This document shows positions 1-63,958 of a DNA stretch of 64,000 nt, in pieces. Each line of letters begins with the position of its first letter. Positions within the stretch are counted from its first letter, which is position 1. The notes under the pieces were generated by a model. The model was given only the letters and a program-made list of their open reading frames with translations. It ran no database searches and was not told where the DNA came from. A program made the position numbers and the translations under genes. Origin of the DNA: Ophelia neglecta (Eukaryota); the NCBI GenBank assembly GCA_965285935.1, contig OZ260664.1:19468001-19532000 (forward strand). Direction: 5' to 3'.

Positions 1-1385
1 AATATCCAGCTTTTTAGCATGATATTTAAGAGAAACTCTCGTGTAAGATAATTTCATTTATCAAAGACCGAACATAAGAACCACACAAGCGAGTAAAGCC
101 AATCATTTGTCATTCCTATTGATAAATTCAAATGCGTCTGCTTGAAAATCATTCATTCGAGTATTTAATCGATGAAACCACAGGCAAAACCGTTAAGGCG
201 GTAAATATGTCAGAGTTTATTGAACCCAGCAAAACATAAAGTTTAATTGAAACGAAATAAATTGCAGGCGTCTACAGAGCCTTTGTACTTTTCAATTTGG
301 TTTATCGGTTCATTTTATTTTTACAAAATCACTCAGTAAAATTTCCAAGCTAATCAATAACAAACAGTGCTGAATATGGAAATTGCTTTTAATCAAAGAA
401 TGTCATTGCTGTGCTTAAATGACTAATTGATGAATAAACCCAGGATTTAATTACCTGAATATTAAGAAGAAACAGGACGCATAGGAAAAGAATTGTTTAG
501 CATTTTGTAAAAGATCAAAGAGTGTAATAAAGTCAGAGAGTAAATGGCATGTACTCAAACGATTTGCCTCTAAGAATGAAAGCTTTGATTGTTTTTTTCT
601 TTAGTAGATTAATACATCAGTTTGTTCGACAACAGAGAAGTGCATAGAACCTGATTTTATCACCTGGTTTTCTAGCCTTTCTAAAGCATAGAGATAGTTA
701 GCAAAAAGTCCTCATTTCTTCCAGACTGTTTCAGCTGCATCCTGTCATCTCGTATATATTTCATCGGTTGTTGAACATAGTCTGGTCATTAAGAACGTAT
801 TTTGTTCTTCTCTGCGCTTTCATCGTGCATTTTAACTAAAACATATTTTTATAGCAAAATGTTAATTTGTGCCTTTTAAGATTGTACTTAGTAAGGTTTC
901 AGAAATAACGCCAATCATGTTGGTTTGACAATATTCCGTCCAGGTTTAATACATATAATGGCTTCCTACAGGACACCAGACACCCAGAGCAAAATCATTA
1001 AGTCAGACCTGCCAATCAAATCGACCCGAAATCATCAGGAGCAATCAGGATCGTGCCTCTACAATGCGGACGCATTTTATAGTAGCCTCTTGAGTATCGA
1101 CCTTGCGAAGGCTGCCGGCTATTCAGTCTCGTCGCAGTGTATATTATAGATCGTAACACTATAAAAAAGGTATAATCGCTAAACAGACAGGTGGATGATG
1201 TGCTAAAATACAGTTAAAAGAATAGAATAAGGGAATGCTGCCCATCAACGGTCTAAGTAGCAATAGCAGAAATGTGAACGTGTTCAGTGTATTTTTATTT
1301 TGTCACTTATGCTAATTTCATGGAACTCTTCTTTGAATTCAATTGAGACTTTATATGAGCTTGGTCGATTTTGCTATCCATGAAC

Positions 1386-1635
1386 GAGGAAAATTAATTT
1401 ATGGAAAATCGAAATCATAACTTTGTTACAAAACGTGAAAATAAAAGGCTATTTTGGGCTTTGAAGAAACATAAATATAAATAAGAACTCCCATTGGCGC
1501 TGTCGTTGGTGTTTTTTCATTCTAAACATGGTGGATACATTTCACCACTTATTGTCGGAAGTAGGCCTTTTTGTCATTTTGTCATTAAAAGAAAATAAAT
1601 CATCTGTATATCTAAATGAAGAAGAAAATTCCTGG
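1386..1635 (+). repeat. Dispersed repeat family B, copy 1
   Basis: Collinear blocks shared with 26028-26260: GAAAATCGAAATCAT, TATTTTGGGCTTT, GCTGTC, GGTGGATA-ATTTCAC, TCGGAAGTA. Confidence 0.7.
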
Positions 1636-2052
1636 CTATGTTCAACTTGTCACCCTGACGTAGCAACGGAAAGTAAGAAAGATGCTTAAGTCACTAGCAG
1701 TTTAAAGAGTACACTGCACACGGTGAACTTCTTGTGTTTACGGGGCCGATGTCTTATCACCATGTATAACTACCCATCACTATGTAGGGTGCCGCAATTA
1801 GCCTAGCAAATGTATAGGGTTCGCGCTGGTTCATGTATCTGCTTAGGAAAACAAGTAATTACAGGTTGCCAGCAATATATATTTGGTGAAAAGCATATTT
1901 GGGGGAATTACAAACTTGTCATACTTAGTTTCAATTACATCAACCAAATACATGACAATCAGCAAACTCTACAAAGGTTTTAATTTTCCTTTCATTGTAA
2001 ATAACAAATATTCCATAACACCAGTTAAAAAAAAAATATAGCTTTGATAATT

Positions 2053-2073
2053 TTTATTTGTCAACCATTTATT
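2053..2073 (-). terminator. Candidate polyadenylation signals of the receptor gene
   Basis: Two AATAAA on the minus strand (2068-2073, 2053-2058) about 160-180 nt past the stop, followed by a U-run (plus-strand A-run near 2027-2036). Confidence 0.45.
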
Positions 2074-2230
2074 CACAAGCACATATTATCTTTCGTGGCA
2101 CTTGAGTGTCAGAATGGTCGATATATATACTTTTTGAGACCCCGTTATATACCTCTGCTGAAAAGCACCAATTATGCTGGTTAGCACCATTATCGCCGAT
2201 ATGCGCTTTGTATAGCAAATATTATTTCCG

Positions 2231-2840
2231 TTACACGTACGATACGTCCATTTCAATTTCACCAAGGGCCTTAAGTTCTCGTTGTATCTTTGAGAGTTCC
2301 CGTTTGAGAATTCGTGTCTTCACTTTATTAGATATGTTTGATTTAGTGCCCTTATCTTCATACCCACCTTGCAACTCGGTGGGACTTTTTGCACAAGCGC
2401 CACCTTCAACTTCCCATCGAGTGTCTATAGGTTGAAGTTCGAACACAGTGGCATTACCTGATGTGGATATGTTAGGGCATGACGTACCCTGCTTCCATTG
2501 GCTGCATACATCGGCCTCACTTTCGTCGACCAATAAGGAACGTCGTTCCTCGTGGCTTCCATCACTGTTTGATTGTCGCCGTGTGTATCCCAAGGTGACT
2601 GATCTGGCCAAAGCTGAGTCTACGCTGTGTCCTCTAGGAAACTGTTTATCACAATCAATATCCGGAGGAGGTTTTAGAGCGGCATTTTCCTCCTCAACAG
2701 TTTTGAAATTTTGGTTTTTAAATGACATTGTGTGGAATCCAGAGTCTTTTTTCTCTAGTTTTTGTTTCTCGACGAGATAGCTGGGGTCAATTTCAGGAAG
2801 ATCGGTGGCAACATCATCAGCATCGGTGATGGAGTCGCAC
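2231..2840 (-). CDS. GABA-B-R3: GABA-B-R3-like terminal coding exon 17 (disordered C-tail)
   Basis: cttag|G-TGC continues phase 2 into the frame of ORF 2231..2728; ends ...EMDVSYV-TAA. Confidence 0.83.
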
Positions 2841-5800
2841 CTAAGTAATGTTAAATAAATATCAATTAAGATAAGCGAAAATATATATTAGTTTCATTGG
2901 TTGGCAGAACCGCTATCTTACTTATATGTAGTATAAATAAAAATACTCTAATAATATTAGTCCTAAATTGGATTGACATTAAATTAACGTTAAATCATGA
3001 GCCTTACTTCTCCATCTCGGCCCTCTGTTCACGCACTGTGTGGGGAGGGTTTTGCTCTTGGGACTCAGGAAGAAGATAAATCAGCTCGTTGGTAATTTGC
3101 GAATAGGGTTGTAGAGGCATTTCTAATAGACGCTCAAGTCGAATAATTTGCTGTTCCAGCTGAAGCAAAAACGACAATAGAGTCAAAAGTAATAAATTCA
3201 AGTTCCTTTCCACTGAAACAATGGTTAACCATATAAGTCCAATTACGGCCTTAAAACAACAACCTGCCATGCTATGCTGACGACTTTTTTCAAACATATA
3301 TGTCTTTGGTGGTCAAAATAACATCGGATACATACATAACCTACTAGAATAATTATTTTTAGAATCACGCTGAATACACTTGTTGACGTGTTTAAGTGAT
3401 AGCCTCAATAATAGTAGAAGACATTCGTCCAACTACAGCTATCAATTTCTGTGATTTGTTAAAGTTGCCTTACCAATAGGTGCTCCCGTTTATACACCCT
3501 ATTCTGTACTTCTGCCCTGTAGTGCAGCTCCCGTTTCTCGTCTAGGACAAATCGCCGAGTGTTGGCTTCCATATGCAATCCAGAGGACGTGATTACTGGG
3601 TTACCATCATGTCGCACTATCGCATATATCTATGAATACATAATATTAACGAAATGGCGGTTGAATGTTGTTCATTTTTTGCATTGTGCCAAATGTTTGT
3701 GTCTAAGACAGTCACTGTTTGAATAAAAAAAACGAAATAAAAGCTTTAGAGATGTCTGTCAATACTCCTTGGTGTACCTACTTTGGGTAGGAAGAGCAGA
3801 CATAGCATGCCGGTTGTAGATAGTAGGATGAAGGCAGATACCACAGTGTAGCTGAGCGTTGGTCGGTCAGACAGCACGTTAGAGAGCGCCACTACCGTGA
3901 TACTGGACAACACCACGTTATAGATGTTCATACCAATATACTGAGAATCATTTAGGGCGGGGATCTTCACGTGGCGAGTTTCCCACGCCATGTAGACGCC
4001 GAATAGGAGCAGTACACCCTTGTAGGCATACATGACGCCCATCCAGACCCATATGTGGCCTGAGTGACACTGTGACAGCTGTGGGATGTACAGAAGGTCT
4101 GTGTTCTTCGTCGAGACCTGTACAGTGATAACTATATCGGTCTTCAATATCAAAGAATTAATCTAGTTTACCTAGTGATTTCCCTGATTGGACTGCTATC
4201 GAACTATTTGCCATTGCACGCTTTAAAACACCTACTTAGTCATAGGTTGTGTTATATATCTAGCTTATAATGATCAATATAAATGTTGGCCTGTAAACAA
4301 CATGTTTTTGAAAGTTCAGACTTACTTCCTCAGTAAAGTTGCTTATTTTTCTTTCCATCGGGTCGATAAAAACCCAGAGCACCATAAGCAGGGTATCAAC
4401 CACTATCAGAGCGAATATGATGAATAACAACTGCTTGTCACGCAGTAACTGAAGGAAAAGCAATGTATCATTGGGTCATGTTTTGTAATAAAATGAGAGA
4501 TAGAATATTTTCATTTGTTTTAAGTATACAGTGAAACCTGCCTTAAATACCACCTCTATATTCAGATCACCTGGCAATAAATAATATATAATGTAAAATA
4601 ACCTGTCTAAACAGAGCACCTCCAAAATCAGACCAATATTTCCCAGTCCCTTGGGTGGTCTCATATCACAGGTTTCATTGTATGTAGTCATATAACCACT
4701 AATTTTTCATACGACTGTCAAGATTATTATATGTCTTATAATGTGTTATATGTATGTCATCGTGTCCAAACCTTTAACGACATTCTTTGAGAAGTCTTTT
4801 CACGCATTATGCTAAGTGATCTGGAATGTTTGGTCATGACTGAACATGATAAGAGCTTGACAAGTACCTTGCTTTTCACCAGGCCAGTATGACAACCACG
4901 GAAGATCTGGTGAACACGATATGTTTTTGTGAACATCGCCCCGAACGCCAGGGAAAATCCGGCTGCCAGCAAGTACGCTCGCACCTGGCAAGTTTTATAC
5001 AGAGAAGGGTTGTGGTAATTGGAAACAAAATGCTCTAATCGTTCATTGTACACAGGGAAAAGCAAAAGTCATACGAAGTAAATACATTTGAATGTAAAAA
5101 TACAGTATATGATATTTTCTAGATATTTTGTTGTGTATTCCGTTGCGCCTTGAAATGGAGGTCATTCGTTTACTTAATTTACTTAGCCAATGGAATGATG
5201 TAAGTTACTGTTAGTTTACGTTTCCCTTGACAACGCATATCAGTGCGACTTACGGAGCAGACGATGAAGTATTCGAATTCCTGTGTTATATCATCAAAGC
5301 CTAGAATAATGACCGCCGTATACACCAGAATGCATCCAATTACAGCCACGTTATTCAGTTTAGGGCTAGACAATTTTATGTATCTGAAAAGTTAAAACAA
5401 ACTTAACTTCAATCAGGCAGAGTGGTTTGTAAGAAGATATGCTGCCAGTGCAACGATGGCATGGCACAATTGTCAGTCAGGCCTATAAAAGTGTTATTTT
5501 GCCAAATCAGATCGTGGTCTTTCCGTTTATTGAGTCGGCATGGCGTTATTTACTCTCATTTCCTATGCCATTTTGCAAAATACTTTTACAATTCACCGTT
5601 ATCCCTTTTGCCTTTGTGTGAACTCACAGTCGAACAGTGCTGATTTTTTGTCTATCAGAGTGAATAACTGGCATTTGATCGGAATTCTTGCATTGGGTGT
5701 TTTCATCGAGATTGAGTTACCAAGAAGAAAGATTGCTTCAAAGTTTCCAATAAAATTTGGCCAAATACTAAATGTTTGGCAGTTGTTTAGAAGTATTCTA

Positions 5801-35800: not shown

Positions 35801-38800
35801 TAGTTGTACGGATAGAGCTCACAATACAAGTTGACTTTTTGGGCACCAAGGTTTTTTGTCCCAGATTAAATCTGACTTTAAGCGCATATCCTTGCTAAAT
35901 CCACCTCCTAGCCAAATCTATCCCAGCGTTGCTTACTGGTTTTTCTGTTCTTTTGATTTATGAAAGTTCACTTTGATATGTGAGCAGGAAATATTTCAGC
36001 TCAATAAATCTGACAAGTTATGAAAATGTTTAGGGGAAGAAATCAAATGGCACATAAATGTCAGAAACACGTTGCTACCAAACAATTAAATGTCAATTTC
36101 CCCCCAAATGACTACACTTACAGTGCGTAGGATATGCTTGCTTGCAGGGTAATGTCCTGGTTGAATTCAGCTCAAGATCGTATCTAAATGCTGCAATGGC
36201 CACAAGTGTCATTATATTTTGGTTTGTACATTTGGTTTGCGATGGAGCATCCGGCATAGTTATTCGATATTGTTGTATTAGTCAAGACATAGTTAAAGAA
36301 CTGAAGTGGATACCCCGCAGACAAAGCAAAATCATTATTCAAGAATAGTTCATTAAACCAGACCCAAATCATCAGGAACCACCAGACACAGGTCCAAATG
36401 CAAAAAGAAAATGAACTTGTAATGCAAATAATAAACATTTAACAATCATTGATATTCCTTGCAATGGGAAGTAGCCACCAGTTTTTCGGGAAGTAAGTTA
36501 TAACAAAAAAACGAGCTGTGATCAAGGTATGTAAACAATAAGCTCTTTAATATGCTTGAAACTAAGGATGAAATTGTCTCAATACTTTCTTAGAGGGGTG
36601 TTAAGTAGACAAGCAATTTACCTTCTATTGCTTCTCCTATAGAGGCAAGATATCTAGCTCTACACGATGCTTGAAGACGCAATATAAAAACAACCAAATA
36701 ATCGACTATATGGCTAACTTGTGTCTAACAAATACCTGAATACAGTGTTAAATTATCGTATTAATCCGAGTTAAAAAAAAAAAAAATTATTCGAAAATTT
36801 GGACATCCGCCCCACTTTCAGGGCGGAAGGGATGTCGCCACTGCGCAGGTGCAACAGATTTTATTGGTGACTGAATCTATGGGAGCAGAGCAGACAATAG
36901 AGGCACAGAACTGGGTCCGGCGTTAAAGGCCCTGCTTTACAAAGAAGAAAACGGTGTTGAACTCCTCAATGGTGTAATACAGTGTGACCATGTAAAGGGA
37001 ACAAGATTGGATTTTTTGTGATTGAATACGATTCATCAGAAACCGTGGTCATCAATCTGTTGCATAATGTTTATAATGTCTCAGATTGATATCATAGTCC
37101 TCTGTGAATCACATGTTGGATGAAAATTTGAAAGAGTGTCATATGTTATAAGTTATAAATAGATATACTGGAATGATGTTAGGAGTGCAAGCCTTAAAAA
37201 TACATCACAGGGCATTCATTAGATGGCGTCTGGCAACAAACTGTAAGGTTCTTCATATGTCTGTCGTTATGAACGCTCGCCTCTGTATTTATAGTGCAAG
37301 GTCACTTCCAAAAATACCCAAGACATACATACTTGTAAAATCACAATTGAGTTGGTATTAACTCTACATCATATATTATTGAAGTTTGGAATCTATAGTA
37401 TATTTTTGGCCCAAAACATGTCCATACTGTCAGCTCTATACCTCAGAAAATCTGGAGAGATGATACTGTTTATTATCTTCAGCTCCTTTTTTGTTGCTGT
37501 ATTGTTCAAGCTGACTAAGGCTTAGACAGTTCTCTGAAGCTTAAGGCGGGGGCTAAATGACAGATATGTCAGTTTTGAAAAGTTAACTAGCTAAGCCTAA
37601 AGTTCAATACGACTCGTACCAATTTAATAGTTAATTCCGATTATACTGGACTTACAAGAACTTGTTATGCAGTGACAATCAGTAACATAATTGGGCGAAC
37701 ACGAGCGGCATGGAAATTACTTTGCTATCAAAAATCCTGTGCAATAAACGACACCATGTGTTAACCTATGGACACGATATTGTAAGTTTCATATAGTCGA
37801 CCTACTTTCATGGCAATTCCCTTTGGTTAATTTTAGAGCACCGAATGCGGGGTAAATGACATATGTAATACGCGTTAGGCGGGTACGGATGTATGGTCGT
37901 TTGTGCGCAAAACCGGACCTAGACACCGCATAATAATAAAACAGGATAGCACTATACATGTAGGTTTATTCAGCGTACTATCAAAGCTTTTTTTACATGT
38001 ACAGAATGATAAATAAACTTTGAGTGTTAAAACAAATGTAAGATGTCGTTCCGGAAGAAACTTTTTCTAAAACGCCAAGTACATCCTGATGACTTTTTAG
38101 GTTAGAAAAGCAAATCCGCCGCTTTATTATTACACTTGAGTTTAAGTATGATCATAAGGCTAGTCAACAGTGCACATGCTTCAAGGATGGCAAAAGAACC
38201 TACCTTGGTGTCGTTATGAAGCAGGACCAGCTGGTATCCTGGAACGAAGCGCTGCTGGTTCACGTGCCTAATGGCAAGTTTGGCAGCCTCAAGCTCTGAT
38301 ATTCCGCGGGGATTGGGCTTACCCGTGAGGGTGGTGAGCTCAAACAGCCCGCCAATATGGAGAAGGGGAAGAGAGGCGTTCTGCTCCGCCTCGGGGTTAG
38401 TAGCCTCCCTCTGCAGAGCTGCTACTCTCATCTGATGGCTAAGTTTGAACCATTTTGAATCGCCAAGGTAATCGGTATCCGAGTTGTGCCCGGCGGACTG
38501 AACATCTCGCCGAGTATGTTTCCTAAAGAAGTGGCGAGGAATCCTGCCATTGAAGCTTAGATTGGAGTGGACGACATTTAAACTGCTGTCAGAATCATTG
38601 AAATAATCAGTGTATATCACTGACTGATTCTGTAATTCTAAATAATTATTTTCAACAAATGTCTCATTACTGCCAGGTGTCATAACAGGTCCACTCCAAG
38701 TTTTGAGCGAAATTCCGATGGATGACACTCCGCCTATGCCTAGAACATGTGAACTTATCCGTAGTGTTAAGCACAGAGAGGCTGTCCAATACGCAACTAG

Positions 38801-38806
38801 GCCCAT
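2231..38806 (-). CDS. GABA-B-R3: GABA-B receptor subunit (class C GPCR), GABA-B-R3-like; 17 coding exons, 1146 aa: join(38204-38806,13388-13525,10010-10180,9465-9575,9293-9358,9000-9185,8046-8285,7658-7718,6812-6901,6188-6338,5254-5383,4868-4984,4326-4448,3782-4117,3474-3629,3008-3159,2231-2840)
   Basis: Exons join in frame at GT-AG sites, total 3441 nt including TAA. Signal peptide, Venus flytrap domain ([50 protein letters not shown]), 7TM ([34 protein letters not shown], LFLPK) and C-terminal coiled coil. No cysteine-rich domain between flytrap and TM1, as in GABA-B receptors and unlike mGluR. Subtype call rests on recalled Drosophila R3 motifs. Confidence 0.9.
3008..3159 (-). CDS. GABA-B-R3: GABA-B-R3-like exon 16 (end of coiled coil)
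   Basis: ttcag|LEQQIIRLERLLE...AEME-K|gtaagg; 152 nt, ends phase 2. Confidence 0.88.
3474..3629 (-). CDS. GABA-B-R3: GABA-B-R3-like exon 15 (not in ORF track)
   Basis: catag|IYAIVRHDGNPVITSSGLHMEANTRRFVLDEKRELHYRAEVQNRVYKREHLL|gtaagg; 156 nt. Confidence 0.92.
3782..4117 (-). CDS. GABA-B-R3: GABA-B-R3-like exon 14 (TM5-TM7)
   Basis: tacag|VSTKN...[29 protein letters not shown]...LFLPK|gtaggt; 336 nt. Confidence 0.95.
4326..4448 (-). CDS. GABA-B-R3: GABA-B-R3-like exon 13 (TM4)
   Basis: ttcag|LLRDKQLL...WVFIDPM...TEE|gtaagt; 123 nt. Confidence 0.93.
4529..4680. mobile_element. MITE (Tc1/mariner-pogo type), copy 1, in intron 12
   Basis: TA|CAGTGAAACCTG...CAGGTTTCATTG|TA terminal inverted repeats with TA duplication; second copy at 39917-40094. 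Confidence 0.8.
4868..4984 (-). CDS. GABA-B-R3: GABA-B-R3-like exon 12 (TM3)
   Basis: gccag|[28 protein letters not shown]...KSK|gtactt; 117 nt. Confidence 0.92.
5254..5383 (-). CDS. GABA-B-R3: GABA-B-R3-like exon 11 (TM2)
   Basis: ttcag|[21 protein letters not shown]...IVCS|gtaagt; 130 nt. Confidence 0.93.
6188..6338 (-). CDS. GABA-B-R3: GABA-B-R3-like exon 10 (linker and TM1)
   Basis: cacag|GGRIPAD...AFYIVCAISAVGIALAIFFLAFNLWHWRL-K|gtatgt; 151 nt. Confidence 0.92.
6812..6901 (-). CDS. GABA-B-R3: GABA-B-R3-like exon 9 (not in ORF track)
   Basis: tgcag|GGEQVRIGLYYPD...CPGCKTITWK-G|gtaatg; 90 nt. Confidence 0.9.
7658..7718 (-). CDS. GABA-B-R3: GABA-B-R3-like exon 8 (not in ORF track)
   Basis: ttaag|GPVSFDGPDRRGVTMLQQNQ-G|gtaagc; 61 nt, ends phase 1. 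Confidence 0.9.
8046..8285 (-). CDS. GABA-B-R3: GABA-B-R3-like exon 7
   Basis: ctcag|TTEEFL...TYDSVWTVA...EFMGVS|gtaaat; 240 nt. Confidence 0.92.
9000..9185 (-). CDS. GABA-B-R3: GABA-B-R3-like exon 6
   Basis: aatag|AYHLGMYGPRYVWMLLGWY...SIAGL|gtaagt; 186 nt. Confidence 0.93.
9293..9358 (-). CDS. GABA-B-R3: GABA-B-R3-like exon 5 (not in ORF track)
   Basis: ctcag|[22 protein letters not shown]|gtagga; 66 nt. Confidence 0.92.
9465..9575 (-). CDS. GABA-B-R3: GABA-B-R3-like exon 4
   Basis: ccaag|AMNEMNKDF...MELLK|gtaaac; 111 nt; weak AAG acceptor. Confidence 0.8.
10010..10180 (-). CDS. GABA-B-R3: GABA-B-R3-like exon 3
   Basis: cgcag|[21 protein letters not shown]...DETFSL|gtaaga; 171 nt. Confidence 0.93.
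12503..12694 (+). repeat. Minisatellite, 44-bp unit, about 4.3 copies
   Basis: Units start at 12503, 12547, 12591, 12635, 12678; consensus about AACATACTGCCTTCGGGACGGCAATAGCGTTAGTAAACTAGTGA. Confidence 0.85.
13388..13525 (-). CDS. GABA-B-R3: GABA-B-R3-like exon 2
   Basis: tgcag|CDPGYG...GTSCSEVT...YWNLLM|gtgagt; 138 nt. Confidence 0.93.
16472..16494 (+). repeat. Poly-A tract
   Basis: 23 consecutive A. Confidence 0.9.
20779..21104 (-). mobile_element. tRNA-derived SINE (Meta-SINE-like) with 16-bp target-site duplication
   Basis: Minus-strand head with box A TGGCCGAGTGG and box B GGTTCGAACC; body GGTACTGATAGCTTCCCTGCCAGGCGCCCGG resembling the Meta domain; (CAA)n tail; ATAATAAGCGTGTTAG at 20763-20778 and 21115-21130. 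Confidence 0.88.
21352..21505 (+). repeat. Dispersed repeat family C, copy 1
   Basis: ATTAAAGTGCTTAATCGGT...TAAACTTA...CAGCTA...AATAGG...ATCCCTA shared with 57869-58030. Confidence 0.7.
25060..25510 (+). repeat. Dispersed repeat family A copy
   Basis: GAAATCATCAGG, CAGTTTTCCATGATGC, GTGGTCAACG, TGGCCCTG, TCTCCCACAG blocks collinear with 34990-35475. Confidence 0.65.
26028..26260 (+). repeat. Dispersed repeat family B, copy 2
   Basis: Diverged match to 1386-1635. Confidence 0.7.
29755..29885 (+). repeat. Minisatellite, 44-bp unit, about 3 copies
   Basis: TTCTAGTA anchors at 29765, 29809, 29853. Confidence 0.8.
32232..32259 (+). repeat. (GGT)n microsatellite ending in a G run
   Basis: About 7 GGT units then G7. 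Confidence 0.85.
34990..35475 (+). repeat. Dispersed repeat family A copy
   Basis: Shares blocks with 25060-25510 and TTGATATCACTTGCAAT, AAGAGAAGGATG with 56265-56555. Confidence 0.65.
38204..38806 (-). CDS. GABA-B-R3: GABA-B-R3-like coding exon 1 (signal peptide, N-terminal extension, start of Venus flytrap)
   Basis: ATG in CCACCATGG Kozak context; LHIGGLFEL...ELEAAKLAIRHVN...PGYQLVLLHNDTK; donor AAG|gtaggt, phase 0. Confidence 0.88.
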
Positions 38807-38888
38807 GGTGGGTGGACATTCCTGTATTTCTAATGGTTGTCACGTGGGGTTTTTATGCCGGGCCGAACTTTCTTCTATCAAGTAGACG

Positions 38889-58030: not shown

Positions 58031-59126
58031 TAAGACCGTTTCCATTAGACATGAGCTGGTATTTCTTCTACATATATAGGTTTTCATATACCTAGCGTTT
58101 TTCAGCTTCTATCTGTCATTTTCTTCGGGATGTCTAAGGCCTGATTTTCTCAGTCACTCAAGCCGATCTGTCCATTGTCTACTATCAGGAAGTTAATGAA
58201 AAATAAATAGTGTATACACGGCAGGCAAAACAAAATTGCCAATCAAGCTTTGTCCTTTTAATTGACCAGGTAATAAACCAGTACTCCACACACAAACGTA
58301 CTCATCTACCTAATAATAAATGAAATTGTAATAGAATTAATTAGAAGAAACTAAAATCAACACCAAAGAGAATGGGAATCAGTTTGCAATTTTCCATGGC
58401 GTGTGCCAAAGCACGGAAGAAAAGAGTCAGTGGTCGATTATGAAATATGCCCTAGAAGAGTCTACGTTCATTAAAAAATGTTCACATAATTGTACACTTT
58501 AAAGAGGATATCGTGGGATGCAAAGTTGCTAATTATTAGACATAATGCAATTGCAGACTCTAACGTGGACACGAAGCTTAACATTTGAATTTTTATGAAA
58601 AGTAATTTGCCTCAACCATTCCATGAGTAAGGGAGATTATTTTTTCTTGTGCTGGAGTATACCACATATAAGAGAGCTAAGTCGGCCGCCGACTCTGCTA
58701 GGGCACGGTTTTTTGTCTTACTACACTCACAAATGACTCTTCTTCAGAGCTCCCAGTGATTTCGAACCGATGTAATGGACATTTCTTTATCAATGATTCT
58801 GGCATCTACTCCCATTTCTTTTCTTGTCTGATACACACAGTGGAGAAGTGGGCATTGCATATCATTGCTAAGTGACGTCATAATTTCAGTGAAGATTTCA
58901 ACCATAATATTTCAAATTATAAGCTGCGAAATGTTAATTACCCTGCAGCTGACGGTTGAAGACTCTGCACCAATTCATTCGATAATTCTCGACTACAGTT
59001 CATTGTCTACCGGGTATTTACGGCCGTTTTTGTAGATTTAGATTTATTCGCTCGTGGCCTCTTTGAGACATGGAGCACAAGCAATTACATAAACGTACAT
59101 ACAAATAGAAACATGAAAATACAGCC

Positions 59127-62100
59127 TCATGAACGATGAAGTACAAGAATCTTCTTAATGAATAATGTTAACGAGCGGAAGATATTAGTGTTACTGATCA
59201 GCTGTGTGAATTTCAACATGCTTGGTCTACTGCGGTAATATAATGGGAGCATTTGTCTGCGAAGTAGAACAACTCTTTCGTCAGTGCATTCTAACAATGC
59301 ATGAAATTCGTCACCTAGCTTGTTACAACTACATAGAGTACAATAACGTTCCAATCGTGGTACACCAACATATCTACCAGTTTCTATAGGTAACACATGG
59401 TTACTCGTTCTGAACCGACAAAACTCAATAGCTAGTTTGTGCGGGAGACAATCCAGGTAAGCTTCAGATTCAAAAGTATTTTTAAATGATGCGTAGGTTG
59501 TGCACAGTCATCGGTTTGCGATGTCTTCAGACCACATTTGAATATACTGATCTTGTAATTTTCTGTTGACATGTAGCTTAACCCAAGTGAGATTTAGGCC
59601 AGCGGCCTGAGACATAAACATGTTAGAGCAACCACAGTTGTCAAGAATAGACTTAATTTGATATAACCACGGCGAGGTGTACATTCCTTTCTGGTGCATT
59701 TCATAAATATATCTATACAATGTGTAACTAAGTTTACATTCTTTACCGCTTACAAGCCTGGCCCAGAAACCAATCATTTTCGTTTTAATATTTACCTCAA
59801 GTGGATAACGGCCGCACTCACCATACACCATTGAGGAACACGTGGACGATTTTAAACCAAGGACATATTTACAGAATTTGGGGTGAAGCCTCTCCACAAC
59901 CGTATTGTCAGCATATCCCCATACTTCACATCCGTAATTCAATATAGGCAAATCATGGTGTCAAATAAGTCCAGACGGAGCTTAATTGGTAGATTTAAGA
60001 TGTTACATCTACTCAAGACAGACATCATCGCTCGTTGAGCTTGCTCTACTAAATGTATCTTACACTTTTTGTAACTCCCAGAGCTGCTGAGAACAACACC
60101 AAGATACTTAAATTCCTTTACAACCTCCACTCTTTTGCCGTTGTACATAAAATTGTGTGTAACCCTTCGACCTCTACCAAATATGCAAACCTTAGTTTTA
60201 TCTGGATTGACAGTTAGGTGCCACTTACGACAATACTCTGACAGATCGTCCAAACCTTTTTGGAGCTTGAAAGCGGTATTAGCAAGAATAGCGGTATCGT
60301 CTGCATATAAAATGAGCAGAATTATAATTACGCCTTCGGCATCCACAAATACACCGTCATTCCCTCGATCAAACAGGAATGATTCTAGATCGTTAATAAA
60401 GAAGGAAAATAGGAGTGGCGATAGGTTTTCCCCCTGCCTTACACCGGTTGAACATATAAAATAGTCACTAACTTTACCATTTTTGGCCACGCACGACCTC
60501 ACATTTACATACATATTTTTTTACAACACTTACCAATTTACTGTTGAGACTAAGCCCTTGACTGTGTAACTTCCACCAGAGAGCTTGCCGCCAAACCATA
60601 TCAAAGGCTTTGTTGTAGTCAACAAAAGCACAAAACAGATTTTCCTTACGAAAAAGCATAATATCTATGATGCATTTAAGTGAAAATATCTGGTCCATTG
60701 TGTGGTAGCCCTTGCGAAACCCAGCTTGATTTTCCTTCAATAGGTTGTTTAATTCACTAAATTGACATAGACGATCATTAATAAGACTTGTGAAAAGTTT
60801 GCCCATGCAAGATAAAAGTGTGATACCACGATAATTTGTCGGGTTACATTTTTCCCCCTTTTTAAATATAGGTACAATTATACCAATAGTCCACGATTCG
60901 GGAATTTGGCCGTTGGATAGTATAGTGTTGAACAATGTAACATATAAAGGCAGAAAAATGTCTGTTGTATGTATAATAAACTCGTTAATAATGTGGTCCA
61001 TACCACAGGCTTTGCCACGCTTCAACTTTTTAATTGCACACAGTATTTCGTCAGCAGTAAATGGTTTATCCAACGAGAGGAAGTCGATATTATTATCACA
61101 ATTATCTAAGGAGGGGAGTTCTTCGTTCTCCTCTAAATGCGTCGACTTCCCAAGATCTCTGAAGTGGTCATATAGATCATTCAAGGATGCCTGTATATCA
61201 GCAGTTTTGTTTTTCATGTTAAGTAATCTCCAGTATTCTTTGGAGTTGCTTTTCTTAAGATTGGTCAAATTCTTTCTAAGAAGTTTGTTTGCCGCTGATT
61301 CGGCTTTCTGGCGCTCTCTTTTTAATGCCCTACTATGGCGAACCAGATCCTTCCGAGTTTTAGCCAATCTGAGGCGCTGGTGGGTCCTCTTTGCGTGATT
61401 GTATCGCGACTTAGCTAGCTTATACTCAGTGCCGGTGAAGTGATATTTATGCTGCCTTTTATTAGTTAGGTCAACATTTGGTCTAGGATGTACAGTCGGA
61501 CTCGAAAATGTGCTGATAGCACTGTCCAACATCACACCAGATAATAATTTAACCACATGATCAATATTAGGGTTAACACCGGCTAGTAAATTGTTCAACG
61601 AATTAATTTTCGCCTTGTCTAGATTATTTACAAAATCTAGTATTTTATCATCGCGCCACCTTTTGTAGGGTACCTTATGACTATTTGCTTGATGGTCCAC
61701 ATTAATGGCGGTCTCTGCGCCCTCAGACTCCAGACATGTACTAAAATACACAAAGATGGGCTTGTGGACATCAGACAATAGAGGGTCAAAGTCGAGTACC
61801 TCGAACGAGTTAATTTTGATGCAATATCAGGAGAACCAATAATATAGTCAACAATAGTACCGTGTGTGGTGGTTGCCGCTCCTTGCTGAGCGTCAACACC
61901 TAACCGACCATTGAATACTATAAGCGAGGTGCTTTTACATAAATCTAATAGACGATTGCCGTAGTACAAATCATTGTTAATGTCTACTGAAACTCTTGTG
62001 AGTGGAATATCAAAGTTGAATAAAATACTTCCAGTGTCTATAACATTAATATACTCTTCATTCACTCCCACCTCATCAAACAGCCTATGATCAAATAAAG

Positions 62101-62635
62101 TTATATCACTCTTCGTCCGTGTATGGGCATTAAAATCCCCAGCTAACAAAAAGTGGTAAGAATCAACACCCTGGGTCACAATGAAGGTTTCCAAGTTGTC
62201 ATAAAATTCTATACTAGAAAATCTTGATTCTTTCGGCGGGATATAAACATTGCCGACAATCGTGTCCTTGTCCAGGCCAAGTATAGATTTGTCAAGTTTA
62301 AACCACTGGCAAAAATGATTGTCCCTGTCAATAATAGTGACAAATTTCTTAAATTTAGACCTTATTGCAATTAATAAGCCCCCGGACCTTCTTATAGCCA
62401 AGCTTGTCCTATTTCTGAAATAGACATAATACCCGTACTTGAGAAATTCGTTCTTAATGTATTCATTACAAGTATCATCCAATTTAGTTTCTTGTGCACA
62501 AATGATGTCGTAATGACACAATTGATCAAAAACGTCTGGCTTATTCATTAAGCCACATACATTAATAGACAATAGTGAAAGATTGTTGGGTACTCTCTTC
62601 TGAGGTGTGTGATTCGCCTGTGCCCCGTCGCGCCC
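59127..62635 (-). pseudogene. LINE ORF2 (endonuclease, reverse transcriptase, CCHC), disrupted
   Basis: APE motifs SINVCGL, CAQETKL, VYIPP, AGDFNAH, VDYII, SDVHKP; RT motifs NYRGITLL, QAGFR, FVDYNKAFD, YADD. Frameshifts near 61815, 60518 and 59950 and an in-frame TGA at 59508-59510. Confidence 0.9.
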
Positions 62636-63958
62636 CTATTCTCCAGCCTGGGACAGCGGTGTGTAGCGATTATAGTTCGGCCCTATGATACCGCCCCCCG
62701 CACGGCGGTTGCCCCGATACCCGCCTCTTCTGCCCCGCCTCCCCTCCTGACGGCGTGGATTCTGTGTGTCGTAGTTGGCAGGTGGGTCATCTTGTCGCCG
62801 AGGCTGGGACCAGACTGGCCGCTCTTGTTGTGGCTGAGGGTTAGGAGGTGGCGGCGGCGGCGGCGGCGGCGGCGGCCGTGGACGAGCAAAAGGACGGGCT
62901 CTACCTTGTTGAGCTTGCCTTGGACTAGTCGGGGGTTGGTCTCTCCTGCGGTCGTCCATCTGTTGTAAGGGTCGCAGTACAGTATGGGCCGTCAACCGGT
63001 AGTTGTCGCCCAATACGGGTATGTTATTCAACATTGCCTGGATGTTCAGCTCCATTGCTCGCTCCACGTGGGGTTTACAGGCACGAATGAATACAGACTT
63101 GAATTCTTCGGAGGTGTTCAGGTTTTTCTTGTTTTTTAATATTGCTATTTTCTCATCCCGTGAACTGAAGGCAATCTTGACAGGAGCCGGTCTATCCACG
63201 AAATTCTGCTTAAGGCGGCGTATTTGTTGGACAGCAACTCCATTCTCGTTCGCAGTTATACAACCGATCATTCTTTTCACAGTTTGTTCAAGATTTTCTT
63301 CGGTTTGTGGAAGGCGGTAGACTATAACAGTTCTGTGACAGTTATCCACTGGGTCGCCCTCAAGGGTACGAATTCTGCTCTGTAACTGGCCGATGGTTTG
63401 ATTGATATTCTGCAGCTGGTCACTGATGGTTTTCGAGACGCCATCCAAAACCAGGCTTTCGATAGAAGACTCCATTACATTCACATTATTTTCTACCTCG
63501 TTCATCCTCGCTTCCAAATGTGTGTGTGTGTCCATATCCACCGCGTTGCCTTCCAACTGGAGGATTCGTTTTGATAGACTGGCTATATCACCAGAAAGCT
63601 TGTTTTCAACGCCAGACATATTATTTTCAAAGTCAGTAACCAATTCTTTCTTTAGGTCGTCAAATTTCGAGTCCAAATATTGGTTAGAAAGTTCTTGTTT
63701 ATCGATCAGTTGTTGGATGAGGTCCCTTGTTGTGAGCAGGCTGGGAGAGCGAGAAATTGGGCTGCCCCTACGTTTTTTGCCTTTTTCTGCACGCTCGCTG
63801 ATTTCAGAGAAAGACAGCAGTAGTCCTGACTGTGGTGGCGCTCGTCCTTCCTCCGAATCCTCCGGGTCAGTGGGGATAAGCATGGGACTCCCCTGGCCCA
63901 ATGACATATCTGAGTCCGTCGAACCCGGCATAATCAGCTGTTCATGGCATTCCGTCAA
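62636..63958 (-). CDS. LINE ORF1 protein (coiled coil, RRM-like domain, Pro/RGG-rich tail)
   Basis: Uninterrupted 440-codon frame, open to the window edge; first ATG at 63931; heptad-rich middle, RTVIVYRLPQ...PAPVKIAF...VFIR RRM-like segment, poly-Pro and RGGYRG tail. Confidence 0.8.
   Translation of the reverse strand: MTECHEQLIMPGSTDSDMSLGQGSPMLIPTDPEDSEEGRAPPQSGLLLSFSEISERAEKGKKRRGSPISRSPSLLTTRDLIQQLIDKQELSNQYLDSKFDDLKKELVTDFENNMSGVENKLSGDIASLSKRILQLEGNAVDMDTHTHLEARMNEVENNVNVMESSIESLVLDGVSKTISDQLQNINQTIGQLQSRIRTLEGDPVDNCHRTVIVYRLPQTEENLEQTVKRMIGCITANENGVAVQQIRRLKQNFVDRPAPVKIAFSSRDEKIAILKNKKNLNTSEEFKSVFIRACKPHVERAMELNIQAMLNNIPVLGDNYRLTAHTVLRPLQQMDDRRRDQPPTSPRQAQQGRARPFARPRPPPPPPPPPPPNPQPQQERPVWSQPRRQDDPPANYDTQNPRRQEGRRGRRGGYRGNRRAGGGIIGPNYNRYTPLSQAGE

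Follow-up and report, generated by a model that had tools for sequence, protein, structure and literature searches.

The ORF2 of a LINE located at the end of the window, i.e., the whole 64,000-nucleotide stretch of DNA that was analysed, is probably produced by readthrough of a Type III UAG stop codon, which would be stimulated by long-range pairing between the bases following the stop and the 3' UTR, as in tombusviruses. This route to the copying enzyme appears probable because the UAG is in frame and the post-stop bases show complementarity to the tail of the element. The original prediction had proposed, from the junction of this element, a readthrough product fusing ORF1 to ORF2, with a GC-rich structured tract as the signal. 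Readthrough is the reading best supported on comparative grounds, but the signal differs from the kind that was proposed.

Organization of the element and its genomic copies

The element is an APE-type non-LTR retrotransposon (LINE), as illustrated by the succession of an APE endonuclease and a reverse transcriptase and by the presence of dispersed 5'-truncated copies. Its C-terminal motif suggests that it may belong to the RTEX clade. It lies on the minus strand, with its 5' end just beyond the window, and comprises the following features:

62636..63931, minus strand: ORF1, 431 aa from the first Met (63931), with a coiled-coil-like region and a Pro-rich and Arg/Gly-rich tail
62636..62638, minus strand: single in-frame TAG; the hexamer UAG GGG fits the Type III readthrough class UAGGGV (class as given in PMC13517186)
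62627..62635, minus strand: 9-nt spacer between the stop and the predicted helix
62614..62626, minus strand: proximal arm, predicted to form a long-range helix with 59084-59072 through 13 consecutive pairs, of which 4 are G-U
62561..62563, minus strand: codon for the Asn of the first APE endonuclease motif, preceding the first Met in frame (62548)
59127..62635, minus strand: ORF2, with APE endonuclease, reverse transcriptase and Cys/His C-terminus
59072..59084, minus strand: distal arm, in the 84-nt 3' UTR, also predicted as the lower stem of the terminal stem-loop
59049..59084, minus strand: predicted two-tier 3'-terminal stem-loop with compensatory changes among families, a likely template recognition site (role drawn from PMC3747384)
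59033..59048, minus strand: 3' end of the element, AATAAA followed by a short (AATCT)n-type tail

As originally described, ORF1 and ORF2 share one frame across a single UAG (62638-62636, minus strand): ORF1 ends with GGA GAA TAG and the frame beyond the stop reads GRDGAQANHTPQKRVPNNLSLLSINVCGL. The claim that no Met separates the stop from the endonuclease motif was verified as well, the first in-frame Met being located four codons past the Asn of SINVCG. This residue corresponds to the first-motif Asn of the human L1 endonuclease (TLNING) in a profile-search alignment that is weak for this stretch alone; a single-sequence PDB search was uninformative. The ORF2 of the window copy is decayed into five frames. 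Pfam matches to Exo_endo_phos and RVT_1 were above cut-off, and the best PDB match was human L1 ORF2p (E 8e-50). For ORF1, the Pfam search returned coiled-coil matches only, weak and under the cut-off, and found no esterase; every match in the ESM Atlas scored below 0.9 and is to be read as a lead only.

A search of the genome yielded eight matches, about 99% alike, with differing starts and a common 3' end. The same TAG-G was present in all seven copies spanning the junction, the eighth match being 5'-truncated, and a frame of 1169-1170 codons was open from the stop to the end of ORF2 in four of the eight (L010, L011, L013 and L015). Since no spanning copy carries a sense codon, the stop is a trait of the family, and a private nonsense mutation in a single-ORF element, one of the alternatives considered originally, is ruled out for the window family. 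Among these copies, the 5' region of L011 contains two insertions of ~80 nt relative to the other full-length copies L010 and L014, and L016 carries a separate open frame of 1136 codons (982-4392, oriented) immediately ahead of a truncated element.

Stop identity and frame among related families

A protein search gave at least 153 matches (150 of 832 candidates scored), and 60 further stretches were selected by the length of their frames and their coverage of the N-terminus. Families were grouped by eye. An ORF2 in another frame in relatives, which was originally named as evidence against readthrough, was observed in five families with overlapping, out-of-frame ORFs, whereas 21 families were in frame. 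Of these 21, 14 include a copy whose frame is open for at least 150 codons ahead of the stop; in the other seven (F6, F9, F11, F12, F16, F21, F22), the ORF1 copies are decayed and the in-frame status was assessed by eye. Metagenome and prokaryote-genome collections provided an outside set of 161 loci, mostly eukaryotic LINE DNA, and a viral contig collection a single, RT-only match. Among L188-L267, such contigs occur in many records titled bacterial MAGs, host DNA having been binned with the genomes of symbionts. An endonuclease start and an upstream stop were found in 52 outside loci, with a long in-frame upstream ORF in 32; some of the 20 others are decayed, some are out of frame and one is a fusion. 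The 53 in-frame junctions described below combine the 21 families with the 32 outside contigs, related families not being independent.

At these junctions the stop was TAG in 49 cases, TGA in two and TAA in two, and TAG-G was found in 41. The ORF2 ends of the same elements (n=40) comprised 17 TAA, 13 TGA and 10 TAG, with a G at +4 in six. Leaving aside the seven families assessed by eye, TAG accounted for 43 of 46 junctions and TAG-G for 38; among the 32 outside junctions, the corresponding numbers were 31 and 27, with one TGA-C. The strict Type III list (UAGGGV, UAGGUA, UAGGAU) fits 17 of the 53 hexamers, and UAG-G-purine fits 37. Only two families here show a clearly changed stop, F7 (L075, TGA-A) and F8 (L076, TAA-A). 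In both, the two arms changed along with the stop while strong predicted helices (11 and at least 16 pairs, respectively) were kept.

The spacers from the stop to the endonuclease Asn range from 6 to 309 codons, all in frame with ORF1. They are open by definition, and the informative point is that the first stop reached belongs to ORF1; the other two frames are interrupted by 96 and 175 stops over 1691 codons. A Met was found in 12 of the 53 spacers (15-18 expected by chance) and was absent in 41. Long open inserts (103-309 codons) separate the in-frame stop from the endonuclease in L191, L243, L228 and L209, being Cys-rich in L191 and Pro-rich in L243.

These spacers bear on the non-AUG reinitiation that was originally listed as an alternative. 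According to this explanation, ribosomes terminate at the UAG and reinitiate without AUG, in an L1- or SART1-like manner, the RNA fold-back keeping the 3' end close to the stop, so that ribosomes are retained or the RNA is protected against nonsense-mediated decay (NMD). Mammalian L1 and silkworm SART1 also have bicistronic RNAs translated by termination-reinitiation, L1 across a 63-nt spacer and SART1 at an overlapping stop-start with a required structure downstream of the ORF1 stop; neither is described as making a fusion in the available text (PMC5972666). The 12 spacers containing a Met would suit such a mechanism. However, Met is not enriched, in-frame ATG, CTG and GTG are all absent from 23 of the 53 spacers, and the 193 open codons of L243 include no Met. 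Moreover, three features are not predicted by reinitiation, namely the retention of frame over 6-309 codons, the frequency of TAG-G (41 of 53 junctions) and a helix ~9 nt past the stop. Hence, reinitiation is disfavoured and kept as the main rival, one that we regard as fairly unlikely.

With readthrough, both ORFs would be joined in one protein. In one contig (L229), ORF1-like and ORF2 sequences form a single frame of 1487 codons, the position of the TAG in its sister L224 being occupied by a Phe codon, which hints, from this contig only, that a fusion is tolerated and possibly natural. A FastTree phylogeny of 73 rows, built without reference elements and midpoint-rooted, so that no order of events is claimed, places the in-frame state across several deep clades with the out-of-frame families nested within, two of the five among TAG-G lineages. 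The one-frame ORF1/UAG/ORF2 layout is found in a large group of animal LINEs, far wider than first noted. Because five families have overlapping, out-of-frame ORFs, ORF2 can also be produced by other routes. In one of them, O10 (L085, L088, L089, L091, L094, L095), nested in a TAG-G clade, the ORFs overlap by ~94 nt in another frame and no Met precedes the endonuclease, while the 3' stem-loop is retained; it is a candidate for -1 frameshifting or reinitiation.

Pairing between the post-stop bases and the 3' UTR

The GC-rich tract following the stop in the window had been put forward as a local structured signal. Folding does not agree with this, as no stable local structure was obtained for the tract (z +0.4 to +1.6 relative to shuffles), which forms instead an arm of a predicted long-range helix. 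Over 18 families, local folds after the stop reached z of about -2 in F4 and F8 only, in longer windows. A local stem or pseudoknot-like fold was rejected as the signal, the post-stop RNA folding no better than shuffles. When upstream sequence was included, most of the proximal arm was engaged in local pairing (mean unpaired probability 0.33).

The long-range partner was first spotted by eye: 62626-62614 is complementary to 59084-59072 in the element's own 3' UTR, 3530 nt away, through 13 consecutive pairs. The first test relied on unrestricted duplex folding, which allows large loops and is noisy, and 2 of 18 families exceeded all 200 shuffles. After that weak result it was replaced by a compact-helix model, whose energies come from a purpose-built simplified helix model. 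Partners of the 36 nt following the stop were sought across ~5 kb in the 18 families with a recoverable 3' end, expected counts being derived from other windows of the same elements. The best partner was located in the element's own 3' UTR in 6 families (0.6 expected) and was among the top four in 11 (2.1 expected). In the outside in-frame contigs, which were obtained later, the own 3' UTR ranked first in 7 of 22 (1.5 expected) and among the top four in 13 (5.2 expected); 9 of 22 fell outside the top four, several of them having no 3' end found. Not-in-frame outside contigs (n=12) gave 0 in first rank and 4 among the top four (1.0 and 3.2 expected). When cognate 3' UTRs were compared with non-cognate ones, the observed pairing was matched in 1 of 100000 permutations for the families here. 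For the outside set, none of 50000 permutations reached it, and the same was true of 27 rows taken one per clade. The signal peaked at +1 to +26 after the stop in the families here; four windows offset by -72, -39, +60 and +120 showed none.

In nine elements, selected for a common distal motif, a single register could be followed, with the first eight pairs kept in 70 of 72 cells. Compensatory changes affect both strands of the helix at two positions: position 3 is A-U in six elements, G-U in two and G-C in one, and position 5 is C-G in five, U-A in two, U-G in one and mismatched in one. The arm sequences of other clades are unrelated (F7, F8, F20-F22, L124/L144, L208/L210/L214). In F6, F18 and F21, pairing was no better than that of shuffled queries.

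The distal arms lie mostly 10-40 nt from the 3' end, a position that would also suit the fold-back component of the reinitiation alternative, as NMD is suppressed when the poly(A) tail is folded beside a stop (PMC2689704). Against this, no such pairing was found in four overlapping-ORF families despite equally long RNA past the ORF1 stop (3' UTR partner among the top four in 0 of 4). NMD shielding and readthrough could nevertheless coexist, so that shielding may be an alternative or an added role of the helix.

The distal arm also coincides with predicted local folds, i.e., the lower stem or the hairpin of the terminal stem-loop, in F1-F8, F20-F22 and L109, and the stem-loop itself covaries. 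Such stem-loops are a hallmark of stringent-type LINE 3' ends (PMC3747384). The terminal stem-loop and the long-range helix would be mutually exclusive, which models as a predicted switch. This location within a probable template-recognition stem-loop is also compatible with a quite unlikely explanation, in which readthrough does occur but depends on a trans factor or on the UAG-G context, and the helix is used for RNP assembly or reverse transcription. Indeed, F13-F16 and F19 keep the in-frame stop (four with TAG-G) and no 3' UTR partner was detected in them (rank 26 or worse), nor was a shared internal partner found when sought. However, the proximal arm is fixed just past the stop while the distance from stop to endonuclease varies from 6 to 309 codons, and Type III contexts are reported to be weak without structure (PMC13517186).

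The position of the pairing also bears on RNA editing. At the amber/W site of hepatitis delta virus, A-to-I editing converts a UAG to a Trp codon. Similar editing of the LINE stop, with the fold-back as ADAR substrate, would account for the TAG preference, the frame and the duplex, and in 17 of 40 elements the best extended helix takes in the A of the stop. Nevertheless, the core helices begin ~9 nt past the stop, leaving it unpaired, pairing over the elements is highest from +9 to +22, and the TGG variant was seen in none of the seven spanning copies, which on sequence grounds makes editing very unlikely. Lastly, removal of the stop by splicing at TAG/G, which agrees with the acceptor consensus, is hardly credible: the junctions lack a polypyrimidine tract (mean 0.44; 0 of 53 at 0.7 or more), and in 36 of 53 another AG would compete from within 20 nt. 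The same holds for a host amber suppressor tRNA, since TAG also serves as the ORF2 stop in 10 of these elements (n=40) and none of the 18 sites returned by a narrow, non-exhaustive pattern search was a tRNA with a CUA anticodon.

Proposed mechanism and known systems

The frame, the stop context, the missing start codon, the complementarity with its covariation and the overlap between distal arm and stem-loop are read directly from the DNA. We infer that the helix forms in cells, stimulates readthrough and acts as a switch. In the readthrough mechanism, most ribosomes would terminate at the UAG and release ORF1p. On a full-length RNA, the tail would pair 9 nt past the stop, likely at the entrance of the UAG-paused ribosome, and a minority of ribosomes would decode the UAG, yielding an ORF1-ORF2 fusion protein. 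The elongating ribosomes would then strip the helix, leaving the tail free to refold into the local stem-loop for reverse transcription. Such a switch would restrict the synthesis of reverse transcriptase to RNAs with an intact 3' end. It is tentatively put forward, as a fair possibility, that in a widespread LINE lineage readthrough is licensed by pairing with the template-recognition stem-loop 3.5 kb away, in a virus-like riboswitch for RNA integrity, cis-preference and the toggle between translation and reverse transcription.

The predicted arrangement is consistent with known readthrough systems. Known stimulators of readthrough begin 8-9 nt past the stop (PMC3159437), and a structure beyond the stop is generally required in Type III contexts (PMC13517186). 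The closest likeness is with p95 of the tombusvirus CIRV, in which a UAG-G ahead of the polymerase is read through owing to PRTE-DRTE pairing over more than 3.5 kb with a 3'-terminal replication structure (PMC3234231, PMC13517186). The CIRV distal element has mutually exclusive folds, as predicted for the LINE distal arm. However, the CIRV proximal element is part of a large local stem-loop, whereas in the LINE no local fold was found and the distal arm would itself form the stem; the LINE system would work at most like tombusvirus PRTE/DRTE and is not a member. Besides, the CIRV mechanism was demonstrated experimentally in a plant virus, whereas that of an animal LINE with its reverse transcriptase is predicted here. 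MuLV gag-pol likewise has an in-frame UAG-G between structural protein and reverse transcriptase, with a structure 8-9 nt past the stop (PMC3159437, PMC13517186), but this is a compact local pseudoknot, whereas the predicted partner in the LINE lies at a distance of 3.5 kb, and a protease that would cut the fusion was not seen. When the in-frame stop of Tca2, which has a predicted structure, was placed in a reporter, there was no readthrough (PMC2194720); this may be taken by analogy as a caution against the readthrough reading.

Among LINEs, readthrough was proposed from consensus sequences for Group 3 of Paramecium, where ORF1 and ORF2 are in one frame; this is a separate ciliate clade, and the available text describes no stop-context analysis, structure or test (PMC5405496). 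RTEX elements of invertebrates resemble the window element in having a long ORF1 and an APE-RT ORF2 (PMC3905857, PMC5753468), and differ from it by the esterase, which was not found in the window ORF1. The junction is not discussed in the available parts of PMC3905857, PMC5753468 and PMC11203168. The LINE literature that was searched, most subscription journals and Repbase Reports being outside the search, contained no description of UAG-G conservation or of stop-to-3'-UTR pairing.

Two long-standing questions, studied mainly in L1 and SART1, are how ORF2 is kept at a low level when a LINE RNA carries two genes and why LINE proteins favour the RNA encoding them. This lineage would give a different and exactly testable answer, in which a Type III stop is combined with defined base pairs to the 3' tail. 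If true, readthrough control over kilobase range would extend outside plant viruses, and an ORF1-reverse transcriptase fusion protein would be predicted in a LINE. A reporter containing only the junction, as originally suggested, could yield a false negative.

Elsewhere in the window, two long open frames on the minus strand (38102-38839 and 2231-2887) are probably host exons, the former perhaps corresponding to the start of a receptor ligand-binding domain, which it resembles. In the genome, a tandem array of tRNA-Leu genes alternating UAG and AAG anticodons was observed at about 18.53 Mb (L272-L275, G000:C2).
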